Shown here in pieces: positions 1-25,411 of a DNA stretch of 64,000 bases. The stretch lies in assembly GCA_030430675.1 (NCBI GenBank), contig JAUIKU010000001.1, positions 4,152 through 68,151 of the forward strand. Direction: 5' to 3'. The translations under genes were made by a program, and so were the position numbers. The notes under the pieces are model-generated. The model made no database searches and had not been told where the DNA came from. It saw only the letters and a list, made by a program, of their open reading frames with translations. This DNA is from Bacteroidia bacterium. GTDB lineage: Bacteria > Bacteroidota > Bacteroidia > Cytophagales > Cyclobacteriaceae. How positions within the stretch are numbered: position 1 is the stretch's first letter; each line of letters starts with the position of its first letter.

Positions 1-893
1 AGTTTGGCCACCAGTTTGAAAAAAGGATCTTAGATGTTAAGGATATTTCACACTTAAAGACTTGGAATCCTAATTTTAGGCATGGGGCGCAATTCATGGG
101 TATGAGTCCATTTGAGGCAGCAGGTTTAGCGATAGCGGCCGTTAACGAAGGACACCAGGCTAAAGTAAGAAAGTACCACTCAGGAGGCATAGAGGGGTTT
201 ATTTCAAAAGGTAGCGGGGCAGATTCAGTGTTTACTCCTGATCAGTCCGAGAAATTAACCAACTACCTGCAAACTAAATACGCTGGATACAAGCGCAGTT
301 TGTACGCTACCGGGGCAAATGCTAAGTGGAATTCAATAGGAATGTCAGTGGTGGACTTAGCTATTTTAGATGCGTTAAACGCTGATAAGAGAACTATTTG
401 CTCAATGCTCAATGTAGATTCTAAGTTACTCAATGACCCCGGAGCTTCTACTTATAACAACATGACTGAGGCTGAGAAGTCCACTTATCAAAAGGCTATT
501 ATTCCCAGGGTAGAAGATGGACTGGATGAGTTGAACTTATGGCTTACACCTGCCTATGAGAAAAACGGGCGTTTCCATGGGACGAAAGGAAAACTTTCCC
601 TGGAGGCTGATTATTCTAAGATTGAGTGTTTGCAGGAGGATAAAAGCGATTTAATTGACAGATTTAATAAGTTAATCGCTGTCCGTCCTAAAGATCAATT
701 AGAGGCTATGGGCTTGGATGTGCCCGAAGATCCCTTGTTGCAGGAATACTGGATAACCGTACCAGGGGGAAGAATTCCGTTAAGCGATTACCAGAATAGA
801 AACTTAGATACTAACTTGGAAGAGGAAGCCGAAAAGGTTATAAAAAGACTGGTGCAGGAGAATCATTACTTGTTGAATGGCACTTCTGACTAA
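1..893 (+). CDS. Phage portal protein (5' partial, continues upstream of window)
   Basis: The frame is open from base 3 with no stop before the tracked ATG at 96. It sits immediately upstream of the head-morphogenesis and protease genes. The sequence is portal-like (…GANAKWNSIGMSVVDLAILDALNADKRTICSMLNV…). Confidence 0.8.
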   Translation, partial: FGHQFEKRILDVKDISHLKTWNPNFRHGAQFMGMSPFEAAGLAIAAVNEGHQAKVRKYHSGGIEGFISKGSGADSVFTPDQSEKLTNYLQTKYAGYKRSLYATGANAKWNSIGMSVVDLAILDALNADKRTICSMLNVDSKLLNDPGASTYNNMTEAEKSTYQKAIIPRVEDGLDELNLWLTPAYEKNGRFHGTKGKLSLEADYSKIECLQEDKSDLIDRFNKLIAVRPKDQLEAMGLDVPEDPLLQEYWITVPGGRIPLSDYQNRNLDTNLEEEAEKVIKRLVQENHYLLNGTSD

Positions 894-1626
894 ATCGGTA
901 TCCTGGGACACTTTTGACCGGGCAACCCGTACCTATGAGCAGCCCGCAGATTGGTTAATACGCCAAGCCTTGAGAAAGCAGTTTAAGGCGGTGCAAGTCC
1001 ACCTGGACCAATCAGCCACGTTAGACCAGGCGTTGAACCTTCCTGACGGCATTATCGATGAGCAGCCTATGTTTAATGCCTATGAAAAGCTATACACCTT
1101 AGTTGGGCCTCCCTTTGCCAAGATGACCATTGAAGCTATTCAGGGTTCACAACAAAAGCAGTTTGATCACTTGACAGAGTACTTTAGAATATTCTCTCAG
1201 ACTATCGCAGGGGATAAGATCAAAAATATTGCTCTAAATACCTTGGATGCTATCCGTACTATGCTTACCACCATGCCAAACGAAATAATCGAAAAAGGCA
1301 TACCGGCAGTTGGTAGGGAGTTGCGCAGCCAATACGAGGTGTTCACCCGTTGGAAGTCTGAGCAGATAGCACGAACTGAATTAATCACAGCGGCCAACTC
1401 TGGGAGCTTAAAGGGAGCCAGGTCATTAGGTTTTGATATGGAAAAAGAATGGATTGCGGGAGGTGGCAATGTGCGGCCCTCACATGCGGAAGCTCACGGC
1501 CAAAGGGTACCTATGGCTAAGATGTTCAGGGTAGGAGCAGAGAGGGCAGATTTTCCGGGGGATCCAAGGTTAAGTGCGGCGGAAAGGATTAATTGCAAAT
1601 GCACCAGTGGATTTATTGTCTTATAA
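877..1626 (+). CDS. Phage head morphogenesis protein (SPP1 gp7 / Mu F-like minor head protein)
   Basis: It overlaps the portal stop and sits at the canonical position after portal. The C-terminal region (…GGNVRPSHAEAHGQRVPMAKMF…DPRLSAAERINCKC) resembles the gp7/F-like domain. Confidence 0.8.
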   Translation: MALLTKSVSWDTFDRATRTYEQPADWLIRQALRKQFKAVQVHLDQSATLDQALNLPDGIIDEQPMFNAYEKLYTLVGPPFAKMTIEAIQGSQQKQFDHLTEYFRIFSQTIAGDKIKNIALNTLDAIRTMLTTMPNEIIEKGIPAVGRELRSQYEVFTRWKSEQIARTELITAANSGSLKGARSLGFDMEKEWIAGGGNVRPSHAEAHGQRVPMAKMFRVGAERADFPGDPRLSAAERINCKCTSGFIVL

Positions 1627-1846
1627 ACCCCGGAGGATAACTAAAGTCAGGCAGAATAGTAAATATTCGAAATCCGTTGGAATCCTGAAATCCGGTGTCT
1701 TTGTACTTCCAAAGTGTTAAGTCTTTATCCTGGCCATCAACTTCAGGGCCTTCCTCGAGTGAGTTGTATTCGTCGCCATTGATGAACAAAACATGACCGT
1801 GCTCTGGCCCGCTAATTAGGATGCTATATTGTTTTTTCTCTACCAT
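1613..1846 (-). CDS. Small hypothetical protein (77 aa), fifth gene of the antisense micro-operon; paralog of 1982..2251
   Basis: It shares SGPEHG and WKYKDT…NGFRIFTILP with GGPKHG and EYKDT…EGHHIFAILP of the 89-aa ORF. Its ATG lies inside the end of the upstream 52-aa ORF. Confidence 0.55.
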   Translation of the reverse strand: MVEKKQYSILISGPEHGHVLFINGDEYNSLEEGPEVDGQDKDLTLWKYKDTGFQDSNGFRIFTILPDFSYPPGFIRQ

Positions 1847-1982
1847 TCAATTTCTCAATCCTATCCTTTATTTTCTTGCACATTCCGTAGTCCTCTTGCT
1901 TTTCGTAGATCACTAGTAGATCTTTTAGCTGTTTAAGGTCTAAGTGGTCTAGTGCGTTTATGTTGGCTTCAAGAGAGGGCAT
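1824..1982 (-). CDS. Small hypothetical protein (52 aa, below ORF-track cutoff), UVR-motif-like helical peptide
   Basis: Hand translation gives MPSLEANINALDHLDLKQLKDLLVIYEKQEDYGMCKKIKDRIEKLNGREKTI. Its ATG overlaps the upstream TAA as TAATG (1980-1984). Confidence 0.4.
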   Translation of the reverse strand: MPSLEANINALDHLDLKQLKDLLVIYEKQEDYGMCKKIKDRIEKLNGREKTI

Positions 1983-2251
1983 TAAGGCAATATAGCGAAA
2001 ATATGATGGCCCTCTGAAGTTTTCAGCCTTGTATCCTTATACTCGATGTAGTCAAGTTTATAATGCCTTGAAGGTGGGTTAGGATTAGCCATTGGAGGGC
2101 CATCCGGTTCTATGGGGAATTTTAGGTACGGGGTAAGCGTTTTGTACTTTTTGCCATGCTTAGGGCCACCGACCATTATAGCGAAAAAGAATTCCTCACC
2201 GACAACATCAACACTTTTAACGCGGACGTCAACCGTTTCTCGCTTTTTCAT
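1982..2251 (-). CDS. Small hypothetical protein (89 aa from ATG 2251; track lists a GTG start at 2257), paralog of 1613..1846
   Basis: The ATG at 2251-2249 overlaps the TGA of the upstream ORF (ATGA). Paralog motifs are shared with the 77-aa ORF. Confidence 0.55.
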   Translation of the reverse strand: MKKRETVDVRVKSVDVVGEEFFFAIMVGGPKHGKKYKTLTPYLKFPIEPDGPPMANPNPPSRHYKLDYIEYKDTRLKTSEGHHIFAILP

Positions 2252-2448
2252 AACCACCCTGGATTTTCATTCTTACCCTTATGCTGCTCGGCCTTCCTTC
2301 GCTCGTTCTGGAAGTAGTTGCTTAGCTGGCCATTTGCTTTCATCCAATTCATCTTCAGAATATCGTCAGTACTTCGCTGCTTGATTTTGGCTAAGAGCTT
2401 AATAGCATCCCTGACAGTGTATTCGTAGGGTTCGTTAGGGTTTTTCAT
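2248..2448 (-). CDS. Small hypothetical protein (66 aa), predicted helical
   Basis: ATGA overlaps occur on both sides (2445-2448 and 2248-2251). I recognise no family. Confidence 0.5.
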   Translation of the reverse strand: MKNPNEPYEYTVRDAIKLLAKIKQRSTDDILKMNWMKANGQLSNYFQNERRKAEQHKGKNENPGWL

Positions 2449-2612
2449 CTCAATAATTCTTCATAATCCTTACTGAAAATAATCCTTTCCATTAAAAACT
2501 TGGTGAGTTCAGAGTTAGTCTTTCCCAGACGCTTTTGCAAATGCTCAAAACGTTTCTTACTCTCGCCAAAAAGTCTAGTCCGGGGCTGGACGTAGTTGCG
2601 ATCTTCTCCCAT
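2445..2612 (-). CDS. Ribbon-helix-helix-like small DNA-binding protein (55 aa, below ORF-track cutoff), first gene of the antisense micro-operon
   Basis: Hand translation gives MGEDRNYVQPRTRLFGESKKRFEHLQKRLGKTNSELTKFLMERIIFSKDYEELLR. It shows a short N-terminal strand followed by two helices, as in CopG/Arc-type proteins. It lies directly downstream of the phased repeat array. Confidence 0.5.
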   Translation of the reverse strand: MGEDRNYVQPRTRLFGESKKRFEHLQKRLGKTNSELTKFLMERIIFSKDYEELLR

Positions 2613-2650
2613 CAATTTCACCCTGTTTCCACTACTAATTTAAAAAACTC

Positions 2651-2694
2651 TGACCACATATCGACCATAGGTTGACCAATATTTGACCGTTTAG
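2651..2694. promoter_or_regulatory. Operator-like array: four direct YGACCR repeats at exact 11-bp spacing
   Basis: TGACCA is at 2651, CGACCA at 2662, TGACCA at 2673 and TGACCG at 2684. The array lies in the divergent intergenic region between the RHH-led - strand operon and the prohead protease gene. Confidence 0.5.
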
Positions 2695-2736
2695 TTTAAA
2701 AATGTTTGGCATTCCGTACCATTGAGTTGTACGGTC

Positions 2737-3456
2737 ATGCTATACAAAGGATTTTATTGCAAAATTGAGGATCTGGACACCAAAGGAGCGAAGGGTGTCA
2801 TAGTAGCCTATGTTAATGCCTTTGGCAACAAAGACCTTGACGGTGACATATCTGCCCCGGGGAGTTTTGACAAAACCATCAAAGAGAACTTCCGCAAAAT
2901 CAAGCATTTCGTGGATCATAATGTGTGGTCAAATAAAGACCTGGTTGGTGTTCCTTTGGAGTTGGTTCCTGACAGCGTAGGGTTGAAGGTCACCAGCCAA
3001 CTTAATTTAGAAAAGCAGACCGCCAGGGACCTGTATTCTGACTACAAGCTATTCTTAGAGCTTGACCGAGACCTGGAGCATTCCATTGGTTACAATGTCA
3101 TTAAACGGGATGACAACGATCAGGCGGTCATTACCGAGTACCGTCTGCACGAATACTCAACTATTTCCTTTAGAGCAGCCAACCCTTTGAGTTTGGCCTT
3201 GGATGCTAAATCCAGTGGCGACCCTTTCACCCCTGCCGATATCCTGGACTGGATACACTACCTGGAGCAGGCTTTGAAGAAGGGTGATTTTACCGATAAG
3301 AAATTTTTACAGATAGAAACTTCCTTGGAAGGTCTCAACCAGACTTGGAAAACACTTGAAAAGCCGGGAGGGGATTCCCTTTCACTTTCTGAGCCGTTGC
3401 CAGACATCGACCTAGTAGGAAGCCTTGATAACATTTTTAAAAAACTAGCGAGTTAA
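2737..3456 (+). CDS. HK97-family prohead (maturation) protease
   Basis: The N-terminal signature is …GVIVAYVNAFGNKDLDGDISAPGSFDKTIKE…. It sits directly before the major capsid gene. I prefer ATG 2737 to the TTG at 2722 used by the track. Confidence 0.85.
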   Translation: MLYKGFYCKIEDLDTKGAKGVIVAYVNAFGNKDLDGDISAPGSFDKTIKENFRKIKHFVDHNVWSNKDLVGVPLELVPDSVGLKVTSQLNLEKQTARDLYSDYKLFLELDRDLEHSIGYNVIKRDDNDQAVITEYRLHEYSTISFRAANPLSLALDAKSSGDPFTPADILDWIHYLEQALKKGDFTDKKFLQIETSLEGLNQTWKTLEKPGGDSLSLSEPLPDIDLVGSLDNIFKKLAS

Positions 3457-3460
3457 GACA

Positions 3461-4786
3461 ATGGCAAAGACATTAGAAGAAGTTCATCAGGACGTGTTGA
3501 CGGTCGGCAAGAAATTGCAAGACCTTGGTCCTGAAATTGATAAGAAGATTGATCTGATTAACGATCAGATCCAGAAAGCGGGTACCGAGTGGAAGAAGGA
3601 AGTTAAAGGCGATCTAAAAGAAGCCCTCGACCTTTACAGCAAGCTATCCGGCGATAAGGAAAAAGGGGAAAAGGCTTGGCACGAATTAGCCACCGACCAA
3701 CTGGCAGAGCTTGAAAAAAGTATCCAGCAAATCCAGGAATGGAAACCCAATAACCCTGCTCCCGAGACCAATAAGTTTCACCAGAAATTTATGGAGGTCA
3801 CCGAGAACGGGGAACGCCTGAAGAAAATGAAAGGTGAAGACGGCAACCGGGGCCAGAAGGATGAGGTTGTTATGGAGATTGAGCGCAAGGCGGTAGTAAC
3901 CGAGGCCGGAGCTTTGACAGGGGATGTAATTGTTCATGGTCGCGCCCCTGGGTTCAAGGTGAAGCCTGAAGAAGCCAATCACATACGCCAAATCATGCGA
4001 ACTGGTTTTACTGCATCAAACCGTTGGTGGCATGTAGCGGAAACCGGATACACCAATAACACCGCAGCTATCGCGGAAGGTGCCGCTTTCCCTCAGAACG
4101 ACTTCGACCTGACTCAGGTAGAGACTGTGAACAAAAAGCTGGCCGCTCACAAGAAGCTGTCCAACGAGATTTTGCAGGATTTACCAGGTGTGATGACTTA
4201 CGCCCAGGGTCGATTGATGACCAAAATGTTCCTTTTAGAAGACAATGAGGTTCTTTTGGCTGATGGTACTGGTCAGCATGTGGATTCTATCAACAACCAG
4301 GCTACCGCTTACGGTCCTGGAGCGTTGTTCCAGAACCTTTACGGCACAGGGGCAACCCGAATTGATGTATTGGGGACTGCTATCAACCAGGCCAGGGTGA
4401 CCACATCGGAAGGTTTGTACAATCCTAACGTGATCATTGTCCATCCAAGTGATGTGACTGTTGCTCAGTCTATCAAGCTGACTGACGATGATTACCTGTT
4501 AAGGGCTGCTTTGCTTACCGATGCTCCATTGCGAGTGAAGGGAGTGGGAACCTTTGAAACTACCGTACAGACTGCGGGAACCTACACTGTGGGCGATTTC
4601 AATCAAGGTGCTGAGTTGATAGACTCAGAAACCATGACCATTGAGATTTCCAACTCTGACCAGGATGACTTCATCAAGGATTTGGTAACCATCCGAATCA
4701 AAGAGCGAATCATACTTCCTGTGTACTTCACCGGTGCATTCATCAGCGGAACTTTTGCAGCTGGCATCACTTATTTGAACGCGTAA
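3461..4786 (+). CDS. Major capsid protein, HK97 fold, with N-terminal coiled-coil delta/scaffold domain
   Basis: At 441 aa it follows the protease. The first ~130 residues are charged and helical, followed by a capsid-like body (…NVIIVHPSDVTVAQSIKLTDDDYLL…). Confidence 0.85.
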   Translation: MAKTLEEVHQDVLTVGKKLQDLGPEIDKKIDLINDQIQKAGTEWKKEVKGDLKEALDLYSKLSGDKEKGEKAWHELATDQLAELEKSIQQIQEWKPNNPAPETNKFHQKFMEVTENGERLKKMKGEDGNRGQKDEVVMEIERKAVVTEAGALTGDVIVHGRAPGFKVKPEEANHIRQIMRTGFTASNRWWHVAETGYTNNTAAIAEGAAFPQNDFDLTQVETVNKKLAAHKKLSNEILQDLPGVMTYAQGRLMTKMFLLEDNEVLLADGTGQHVDSINNQATAYGPGALFQNLYGTGATRIDVLGTAINQARVTTSEGLYNPNVIIVHPSDVTVAQSIKLTDDDYLLRAALLTDAPLRVKGVGTFETTVQTAGTYTVGDFNQGAELIDSETMTIEISNSDQDDFIKDLVTIRIKERIILPVYFTGAFISGTFAAGITYLNA

Positions 4787-4812
4787 TTATCAGGAACCTA
4801 AACATATAAGTA

Positions 4813-5178
4813 ATGGCAATTAGTAAAGCAAAAGATGTCTGCATAAAGCCTTTTTATGGTGATGTGCAAGGCAAAGACGGCAAAATGGAGGCGCGCAGGT
4901 TTGCGCCCGGAAATATCGTAACCGGCCAGCGTGAAGAGGACCGCGAAAAGCGAAAAGCCCGCGGTGTGATCGGCTCAGAGGAAGACTTGAAAAAGTCTGA
5001 TCCAAGCTTGAAAAAACTGGCTGAAGGAGTCTGGCAACCTGACCCGGCATGGTTCAAGAAAAACGAGGGTTCTAACAGCCTGAAAAACCAGGCGAAGGCC
5101 ATCGTTGAAGCGGCCAAGGCAGAAGCAGAACAAATTCTGAAAGACGCCAAGGCAGAAGCATCTAAAGCAACAAAGTAA
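4813..5178 (+). CDS. Hypothetical phage head-associated protein (Lys/Ala/Glu-rich C-terminus)
   Basis: It lies between the capsid and connector genes. No family was recognised. The antisense ORFs listed over it are discounted. Confidence 0.5.
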   Translation: MAISKAKDVCIKPFYGDVQGKDGKMEARRFAPGNIVTGQREEDREKRKARGVIGSEEDLKKSDPSLKKLAEGVWQPDPAWFKKNEGSNSLKNQAKAIVEAAKAEAEQILKDAKAEASKATK

Positions 5179-5181
5179 CCA

Positions 5182-5793
5182 ATGTTTGATACTGACAATA
5201 TCGGACTTCAAACTGAGGTGACCACAGATCCACAAGGGCCTCCGGTAACCACTCCGGAGGTTCTTAACTACCTCAAAGCCCAATACGGGACCGATGCTGT
5301 AGAGGATGCGCTTGTCGATATAATGACCAACAAAGCGGTGGATTTACTTCAGGATTATACGGGCTTGAGTTTTATCACTCAGACACGCAAGATCTTCTTA
5401 GAAAGCTATGGGGAGAAAGTGCCAATACCTTATGGCCCGGTGCAGTCAGTAACCAGTGTATCAAGATTGGAGAACGGTGTAGCAACCGCCTTAGTGCAAG
5501 GCACAGATTACTACCTGTTAGGACTTAATGAGAAGTATCTAAAGTTCAGCAAGGTTTGGAAATCTGGGGTCTTGACCGATTACTCATTGGAGGTGGAATA
5601 TATCGCGGGGTTTACCGATCACAATGAGTTAGAGGATTTCCCGGATGGTCTAAAGGAGCCAATTTTTAGGCAAATCAATGATGATTACTACTACCGCAGC
5701 GAGTATTCAGAAGACGGGTTAACAACCCTCTCAAAGAATGCTATGAACGCGATACCGCCTAATTATGTGAAAAAAGCAACGGGAATCTGGTGA
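5182..5793 (+). CDS. Head-tail connector protein (gp6-like, putative)
   Basis: The call rests on position and size in an HK97-like module. Its stop overlaps the next start. Confidence 0.55.
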   Translation: MFDTDNIGLQTEVTTDPQGPPVTTPEVLNYLKAQYGTDAVEDALVDIMTNKAVDLLQDYTGLSFITQTRKIFLESYGEKVPIPYGPVQSVTSVSRLENGVATALVQGTDYYLLGLNEKYLKFSKVWKSGVLTDYSLEVEYIAGFTDHNELEDFPDGLKEPIFRQINDDYYYRSEYSEDGLTTLSKNAMNAIPPNYVKKATGIW

Positions 5794-25333: not shown

Positions 25334-25338
25334 TATAG

Positions 25339-25411
25339 TTGCCCGACCAGGGCTCGAACCTGGACTCTTCTGAACCAAAATCAGACGTGTTGCCAGTTAC
25401 ACCATCGGGCA
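25339..25411 (-). tRNA. tRNA-Gln (anticodon UUG)
   Basis: Hand-folded cloverleaf with a 7-bp acceptor stem including U1-A72. The D stem is GTGT/ACAC and the anticodon stem is TCTGA/TCAGA. The anticodon loop is TT-TTG-GT. The T arm is CCAGG-TTCGAGC-CCTGG. No CCA is encoded. Confidence 0.9.

Follow-up and report, generated by a model that had tools for sequence, protein, structure and literature searches.

Within a prophage of a Bacteroidia bacterium (contig JAUIKU010000001.1, positions 4,152 to 68,151; this 64,000-nucleotide stretch, analysed in full, is called the window below), five small genes form a cassette that runs antisense to the surrounding head module, between a MuF-like head-morphogenesis gene and the gene of an S78 prohead protease. 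The five packed minus-strand open reading frames (ORFs) of the original prediction, encoding 55, 66, 89, 52 and 77 amino acids (AA), were all recovered where it had placed them. The cassette and the intergenic region from which it diverges comprise the following features, given with isoelectric points (pI) and guanine-plus-cytosine (GC) content where these are relevant.

1613-2621, minus strand: the five-ORF cassette, its span counted from the GTG start of ORF1
2445-2612, minus strand: ORF1, the leader gene; 55 AA from the ATG at 2612, or 58 AA from a GTG at 2621; pI 9.8
2248-2448, minus strand: ORF2; 66 AA; pI 9.7, hydrophilic; its start overlaps the stop of ORF1
1982-2251, minus strand: ORF3; 89 AA, or 91 AA from a GTG at 2257; pI 9.4; paralog of ORF5
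1824-1982, minus strand: ORF4; 52 AA; near-neutral; its start overlaps the stop of ORF3
1613-1846, minus strand: ORF5; 77 AA; acidic, pI 4.6; paralog of ORF3; 23-nucleotide overlap with ORF4
2613-2736: divergent intergenic region between ORF1 and the protease gene; 124 bp, GC 0.37
2652-2688, plus strand: four direct GACC(A/G) boxes with 11-bp spacing (starts at 2652, 2663, 2674 and 2685), a candidate operator
2731-2737, plus strand: ACGGTCA, which repeats the last box (TGACCGT, 2684-2690) in inverted orientation; at seven bases it could be due to chance

The junctions between the five genes (ATGA at 2445-2448, ATGA at 2248-2251, TAATG at 1980-1984 and the 23-nucleotide overlap at 1824-1846) read exactly as had been claimed, and ORF5 shares its final 14 nucleotides (1613-1626) with the 3' end of the MuF gene, which converges on it. 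That all other prophage genes lie on the plus strand proved true for non-embedded ORFs of at least 90 AA up to approximately 25.1 kb, and nowhere else in the 25-kb prophage do two or more minus-strand ORFs of 50 AA or longer abut one another, the other antisense ORFs being solitary. When the six frames of each ORF were compared by a codon log-likelihood score trained on 23 prophage genes, its own frame scored highest for every one of the five. Scores for ORF2, ORF4 and ORF5 were 0.192, 0.223 and 0.204, respectively, as compared to a mean of 0.217 and a minimum of 0.101 for real prophage genes, and a mean of -0.097 and a maximum of 0.124 for a null set of 47 spurious antisense ORFs. The plus-strand frames of the cassette region had negative scores and no plus-strand gene was found there. 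The exact sequences of all five products are present in a public protein collection, each as a singleton cluster.

The proposed paralogy of ORF3 and ORF5 was confirmed (BLASTP E = 3e-7; shuffle z = 9.4, with 0 of 2000 shuffles scoring as high), with ORF3 carrying the motifs FAIMVGGPKHGK and YKDT...HHIFAILP. The cassette is richer in AT than the prophage (GC 0.42 versus 0.457). The products of ORF1 to ORF3 are basic (pI 9.4-9.8) and all five products are hydrophilic, with a highest 19-residue Kyte-Doolittle mean of 1.14, the conventional cut-off for a transmembrane segment being approximately 1.6. None of the five has a membrane segment or lipoprotein feature, and classical superinfection-exclusion proteins of the SieA, Sie2009, Imm or Cor type are therefore disfavoured. 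Our analysis thus showed the cassette to be a genuine, compact, antisense five-gene unit of small soluble proteins that includes a paralog pair, and its description as a compact same-strand operon of non-structural small genes set antisense within the head module was upheld.

The same junction was then compared among related phages. A total of 162 related loci were gathered with MuF, capsid and protease queries, and the survey set consisted of the 106 loci (the window included) in which the protease and an upstream anchor, either MuF or portal, could be located. The gap between anchor and protease was at most 150 bp in 70 of the 106, and an insert was present in the other 36, of which 26 were dominated by plus-strand ORFs, seven by antisense ORFs, and three had no ORF. 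The seven antisense-dominated slots were those of the window, the TARA Oceans contig L002, its duplicate L003, and loci L012, L120, L039 and L141, the last being ambiguous. The cassette therefore lies between genes that adjoin each other in relatives, as a moron would (70 of 106 loci, with phages Pq0 and P12026 as annotated examples), and its interpretation as accessory cargo was borne out, since the slots that are not empty hold varied cargo. Together with the turnover seen in close relatives, the gap survey identifies the junction between MuF and protease as a cargo slot whose contents are frequently replaced.

The prophage is distant from every cultured phage. Only two relatives of the MuF protein were returned from 5.8 billion protein clusters, the nearer of which was from L002. 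Identity between this contig and the prophage is 37-38% for MuF, 51% for the protease and 48% for the capsid protein. In L002, the portal and MuF genes are followed by three antisense small genes and then by the protease and capsid genes. Its cassette begins with a basic leader of 55 AA (pI 10.1), contains an ATGA junction, and ends in a gene that overlaps the 3' end of MuF by 20 nucleotides. The nearest cultured phage, Alteromonas phage PB15 (KX982260; MuF 33% identical), is an infective, plaque-forming seawater isolate in which an annotated integrase is absent. According to its depositors' annotation, PB15 has three antisense genes of 48, 56 and 70 AA at this position, joined by GTGA and ATGA junctions; the 48-AA leader, with a pI of 10.6, is again basic, there is a 9-nucleotide overlap between the last gene and MuF, and the cassette diverges from the protease gene across 124 bp, an intergenic region equal to that of the window in both length and place. 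Because PB15 carries an equivalent cassette without an annotated integrase, such cassettes do not require lysogeny. In the PB15 relatives Pq0 and P12026, MuF adjoins the protease and there is no cassette.

At the level of sequence, no protein similarity was detectable among the cassettes of the window, L002 and PB15, and their intergenic DNA could not be aligned, and the lack of shared protein sequence fits either rapid turnover or repeated replacement. Whether the genes are conserved as a block in related prophages has a two-sided answer: the architecture is conserved in three phages (the window, L002 and PB15), whereas the sequences are not. Coupled antisense small-gene cassettes are recurring minority occupants of the slot between MuF and protease.

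Two more distant relationships were examined and rejected as homology. ORF3 and ORF5 resembled the second gene of the L002 cassette (gene B) at the level of motifs only (BLASTP not significant, z = 3.2 and 1.4, hhalign P = 0.05), and the same was true of ORF3 and the C-terminus of a 190-AA protein from L029 (z = 6.2, a comparison chosen post hoc; hhalign P = 0.0026). A short motif is common to slot cargo at L029 4394-4966 (plus strand), L041 4579-5151 (plus strand) and L002 7472-7750 (minus strand), and consists of a hydrophobic run and GG(P/V)xxGK, followed in L029 by LKF..EP, to be compared with FAIMVGGPKHGK...LKFPIEP in ORF3. None of these comparisons is significant once their post hoc choice is taken into account. 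Judging from this motif, ORF3 and these slot-cargo proteins may share a very divergent small beta domain.

Other antisense occupants of the slot differed from these cassettes. L012 (4804-5940, minus strand) has a GIY-YIG/NUMOD homing endonuclease of 239 AA together with two small ORFs, so the junction between MuF and protease is also a target of selfish elements, and L120 (3691-4185, minus strand) has an ImmA/IrrE-type metallopeptidase (Peptidase_M78, E = 1e-19). In L039 (4908-5117, minus strand) the slot holds a lone antisense gene of approximately 60 AA that looks by eye like a ribbon-helix-helix (RHH) protein, with a strand-helix-helix appearance (KNIRVADDVYDLLKANL...LSKYVEQAIVEKI) and an hhalign P of 0.009 to an RHH profile; no Pfam RHH family matched it. 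Antisense genes also occur elsewhere in the head module. Pseudoalteromonas phage PHS3 (L166, 4396-4931, minus strand) has an antisense three-gene small cassette after the capsid gene instead, and PB15 (L163, 7209-7748, minus strand) has an antisense gene annotated as AP2/ERF-like after the major capsid gene. Antisense cargo is recurrent in the head modules of the PB15/PHS3 phage group.

Presumably, the promoter and operator of the cassette are both held in the intergenic region at 2613-2736. The GACC array occurs once in the window against 0.01 occurrences expected by chance, and it accounts for three of the four GACC-N7-GACC pairs present in the 64 kb. Its distance is 40-76 bp from the ORF1 ATG and 49-85 bp from the protease start, upstream of both, and repeated putative operator sites are thus found, at the sequence level, in the upstream region of ORF1 itself, as would be expected of an RHH regulator. 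A spacing of one helical turn is compatible with several dimers binding cooperatively along the same DNA face, as is the case for the RHH proteins ParR, ParG, omega and MetJ. The inverted copy of the last box ends at A 2737, the first base of the protease ATG. Inside the protease gene, approximately 260 bp from the array, TGACCACATAT at 2921-2931 (minus strand) is an inverted near-copy (10 of 11 positions) of the first box and its flank; with up to one mismatch allowed, the pattern has four matches in the window versus 1.2 expected. No intrinsic terminator was found in 1300-3000, no flanking repeats marking an insertion of the cassette were found, and a search of the cassette region against Rfam revealed no RNA family.

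The original prediction had assigned ORF1 the layout of RHH DNA-binding proteins. The strand-helix-helix pattern stood, with an alternating stretch at residues 8-15 and two helices, one reaching residue 29 and the other spanning 33-44, on either side of a G-K-T turn, whereas significance in sequence or structure tests did not follow. An AlphaFold2 (AF2) monomer model (predicted local distance difference test score, pLDDT, 71) had helices at 10-29, 33-44 and 49-54 and a G30-K-T turn as in Arc, but the N-terminal strand was missing. No RHH family matched ORF1 in Pfam at E <= 1 and no RHH protein in the Protein Data Bank (PDB) with phmmer and profile searches. The stretch GKT-NSELTKFLME, comprising the turn and second helix, resembles GRSVNSEIYQRVME of Arc, though not significantly (BLASTP pairwise E = 0.07; shuffle z = 0.5), and hhalign placed ORF1 in register with a small four-sequence RHH profile (P = 0.048). 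A Foldseek search with the model returned two matches only, MatP and MazE6-N (E of about 7, probability 0.07), which we take to contain RHH domains in both cases, and there was no significant structural match in the PDB or BFVD. In pairwise comparisons of Arc with the leader proteins of the window, L002 and L039, and of these leaders with one another, no similarity was significant. We regard ORF1, with its RHH-like pattern, as a candidate small DNA-binding autoregulator.

For the cassette proteins as a whole, Pfam, PHROGs, PADLOC and NCBIfam contained no significant match to any of the five. The defence-system models of PADLOC-DB had no match at E <= 1, no toxin or antitoxin family was matched in Pfam, NCBIfam or PADLOC, and sequence searches of the PDB returned nothing significant. 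No known Acr or Aca family was matched in PHROGs and Pfam, which are general libraries and not dedicated to anti-defence proteins. Against 50,697 phage genomes, blastn of positions 1-5200 of the window had no match, and tblastn with the five proteins concatenated gave chance matches only (E >= 2). Larger protein collections were searched with the paralogs: a word-indexed search of 5.8 billion protein clusters with ORF3 as the only query returned ORF3 itself alone, and an exhaustive HMMER search of 1.84 billion representatives, using only a profile of ORF3 and ORF5, returned both window proteins and seven large repeat proteins (Big_9, cadherin, PPC). The latter were judged to be spurious because their scores add up over many weak repeats. 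The same paralog profile matched nothing among all ORFs of the 162 related loci. AF2 predictions for the cassette proteins were built on shallow alignments, and that of ORF3, an all-beta model with a pLDDT of 45, was too poor for a fold search. The UVR-motif-like hairpin that had been proposed for ORF4 was not substantiated, there being no match to the Pfam family (PF02151) even at E <= 10, and the only PDB match of ORF4 was a designed repeat protein (E = 0.58). For ORF2, residues 5-53 gave a borderline sequence match to PDB 3l7w_A (SMU.1704; E = 0.049); to the eye the aligned stretch looks like a PadR-type winged helix, on which we do not rely, and no PadR family in Pfam matched ORF2.

The flanking genes place the cassette in the head module of an integrated element, the relevant features being these.

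96-893, plus strand: portal gene, flanking head module
877-1626, plus strand: MuF-like head-morphogenesis gene, short form; 249 AA; PF04233 at residues 144-243; PHROG 2468, E = 3.7e-40
2737-3456, plus strand: S78 prohead protease gene (alternative start, TTG at 2722); Pfam PF04586
3461-4786, plus strand: HK97-type capsid gene, flanking head module
25338-25411, minus strand: tRNA-Gln, directly after the last plus-strand phage ORFs
25486-29190: purL and further chromosomal genes

The protease gene probably starts at the ATG at 2737 (MLYKGF...) and not at the TTG at 2722, because the alignment with its L002 homolog (51% identity) opens at MLYK in both proteins. The PF04233 match of the MuF protein reaches residue 243 of 249, leaving it without a C-terminal toxin extension; such a short form has no need of an immunity gene. 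Chromosomal genes beyond tRNA-Gln encode PurL, a sulfatase, a sigma-54 regulator and aconitase, and tRNA-Gln is likely to be the attachment site and the right end of the prophage. The window also has a sulfatase gene, TPR proteins and a GC content of approximately 45%. A Shine-Dalgarno sequence is rare at the starts of approximately 45 phage and host genes in the window. Taken together, these features hint at a marine host of the Bacteroidota or PVC type, and a quick count of HIP1, used to check for a cyanobacterial host, showed no enrichment.

Several known systems resemble the cassette in one or more respects. In Mu-like Pseudomonas phages, the anti-CRISPR region is flanked by the Mu G homolog and the protease/scaffold gene (PMC3993853), and the RHH protein Aca14 represses anti-defence operons (PMC13551039). 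The slot of these acr-aca loci (JBD30 group) in the head module is equivalent to that of the window cassette, and both consist of small, fast-evolving proteins without wider homologs whose content varies between related phages. The acr-aca loci have a small DNA-binding autorepressor, for which the window has only a candidate in ORF1, and their operator is an inverted repeat over the -10 element, in contrast to the four direct repeats with 11-bp phasing that form the candidate operator here.

Similarly, the cassette shares with the morons of lambdoid and other temperate phages (Hendrix-type) a position between genes that are adjacent in relatives, a non-structural nature, a deviating base composition and an upstream region of its own. 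It differs from them in having no promoter/terminator pair recognisable in a sigma-70 scan, in a 3' end that overlaps the neighbouring gene, and in an architecture that recurs at one junction in phages 33-38% identical in MuF, one of them without an annotated integrase.

Small ORFs directly after MuF are known from short MuF genes, 25.5% of 952 of which are followed by an ORF of less than 150 AA, and include the immunity genes of MuF toxins (PMC5576092). The window genes share this location, but unlike the immunity genes they are read from the other strand, as a five-gene operon behind a MuF without a toxin extension. With a short MuF and 3' genes on the opposite strand, the locus does not correspond to a MuF polymorphic toxin and immunity pair. 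Groups of leftwards-transcribed genes also occur within the structural operons of Microbacterium cluster EJ phages (PMC7302621), which belong to an unrelated lineage with an unrelated host, so together with the small ORFs after MuF the general phenomenon is already known. Another parallel is the immI region (arc, ant, mnt) of the temperate phage P22, whose small RHH repressors lie within the late region and govern a short operon; the window cassette differs in its position in the genome and in having no gene of antirepressor size.

Taking these comparisons together, the reading we favour, tentatively and by analogy, is that the cassette is an accessory, self-regulated antisense operon in a recurrent cargo slot of marine siphoviruses that most likely serves, much like acr-aca loci, in counter-defence or host takeover. 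Counter-defence is favoured because the proteins are small, soluble ORFans (some of them acidic) that turn over among relatives, and because a putative repressor accompanies them in a slot equivalent to that of acr genes. Transcription would begin inside the 124-bp divergent intergenic region, and ORF1, with its basic, Arc/CopG-like pattern, would bind the four one-turn-phased GACC boxes as multiple dimers and so make the operon autoregulated; this binding may additionally affect the neighbouring start of protease and capsid expression. Translational coupling would yield ORF2 to ORF5 in fixed ratios, as small soluble proteins that bind other proteins or nucleic acids. The operon would end within the convergent MuF gene without a terminator, where cassette and late transcription would collide. 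Such head-on transcription would have the cassette on when the late operon is off, in early infection or lysogeny, and silenced late. A more specific version, which we consider doubtful, would make the locus a positionally fixed, antisense, fast-diversifying counter-defence island, gated by its leader through the phased boxes and switched on early and off late by a transcriptional collision that the 3' overlap with MuF would enforce, with ORF2 to ORF5 representing new inhibitor families that include the 'GGPxHG' pair.

A number of observations weigh against the counter-defence reading. Known acr-aca loci usually have their regulator downstream of the acr genes and are read in the direction of the late genes, whereas the window operon is antisense and opens with its putative regulator. 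No promoter-like site was detected by the sigma-70 scan within 2613-2736, although such a scan may not apply here, since Shine-Dalgarno sites are few and host promoters may not follow the sigma-70 consensus. Homology that would indicate a function is absent for all five proteins across the libraries searched, the codon scores of ORF1 (0.056) and ORF3 (0.043) are weaker than those of the other three ORFs, though these two still exceed 92-96% of the null set, and an RHH identity of ORF1 is plausible rather than proven. The likeness among the three phages could also stem from independent insertions at a permissive site, and an anti-defence role is assigned by analogy.

Of the alternatives, the one that survives best, though we hold it unlikely, is a lysogenic-conversion moron, the idea that the original prediction had put first, in which expression from the repressed prophage would protect the lysogen by superinfection exclusion or anti-phage defence. 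This would suit an element integrated beside tRNA-Gln and host genes, a cassette that lies antisense to a silent late operon with an upstream region of its own, and a slot that is empty in most relatives but is filled here by DNA that is AT-rich relative to the prophage. The lack of any PADLOC match, of the membrane or lipoprotein features of classical exclusion proteins and of a terminator closing the unit argues to the contrary, as does the equivalent cassette in PB15, which forms plaques and has no annotated integrase.

Somewhat less probable is a module for the timing of head-gene expression, in which the leader and convergent antisense transcription would control MuF and portal on one side and protease and capsid on the other, much as Arc and Mnt act from immI in the P22 late region, with the downstream small proteins as co-regulators or antirepressor-like factors. 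Position and architecture, but not sequence, are kept in three phages with MuF proteins 33-38% identical, all three have the 3' overlap with MuF (14, 20 and 9 nucleotides in the window, L002 and PB15, respectively), and the GACC array precedes the protease start by 49-85 bp, with its inverted copy ending on the protease ATG. The lone small antisense gene of L039 at the same place and the borderline, winged-helix-like match of ORF2 to 3l7w_A would fit as well. However, most relatives, including Pq0 and P12026, assemble their heads without a cassette, and a core regulator would be expected to retain its sequence, which these cassettes do not.

An atypical toxin-antitoxin or abortive-infection module is improbable. 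ORF1 would be the antitoxin, encoded first and followed by one or more toxins, with the acidic ORF5 possibly neutralising the basic ORF3, and a candidate regulator at the head of a tightly coupled gene order, as well as paralogs of opposite charge, would be in keeping with this. Against it are the lack of a toxin or antitoxin family match (Pfam, NCBIfam, PADLOC), an ORF1 whose 55 AA would leave almost no room for a toxin-binding C-terminal extension, and a gene number, five, that is atypical of such modules.

We give slightly less credence still to decaying cargo from a mobile element, for example a homing-endonuclease insertion, whose ORFs would be real but without current function. Precedents within the slot are the antisense GIY-YIG endonuclease with two small ORFs in L012 and the antisense ImmA/IrrE-type peptidase in L120, but the window cassette has no nuclease and no flanking insertion repeats, and its five frames are intact and tightly coupled and carry a coding signal. 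Finally, that the ORFs are chance antisense frames and not genes is highly improbable, for although homologs were found nowhere and the codon scores of ORF1 and ORF3 are modest, the plus-strand frames score negatively and contain no gene, the chain is the only abutting antisense one in 25 kb, the correct frame scores best for all five, ORF3 and ORF5 resemble each other at the protein level, and the layout recurs in two other phages.

The five proteins are ORFans, and small-gene cassettes in the structural modules of phages are not rare, which calls for caution. The combination found in the window, L002 and PB15, of antisense orientation, overlapping junctions that point to translational coupling, a basic leader of approximately 50 AA beside a divergent intergenic region, an overlap with the 3' end of MuF and complete turnover of sequence, nevertheless appears to be undescribed. 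The cassette's convergent overlap with a late gene makes transcriptional interference a candidate mechanism for a simple temporal switch. The cultured phage PB15, with its equivalent cassette, offers an experimental handle on such loci. If the conservation of the architecture is functional, coupled antisense small genes abutting the 3' end of MuF would constitute a positional rule for locating accessory, and possibly anti-defence, genes in marine phages that are beyond the reach of sequence searches.

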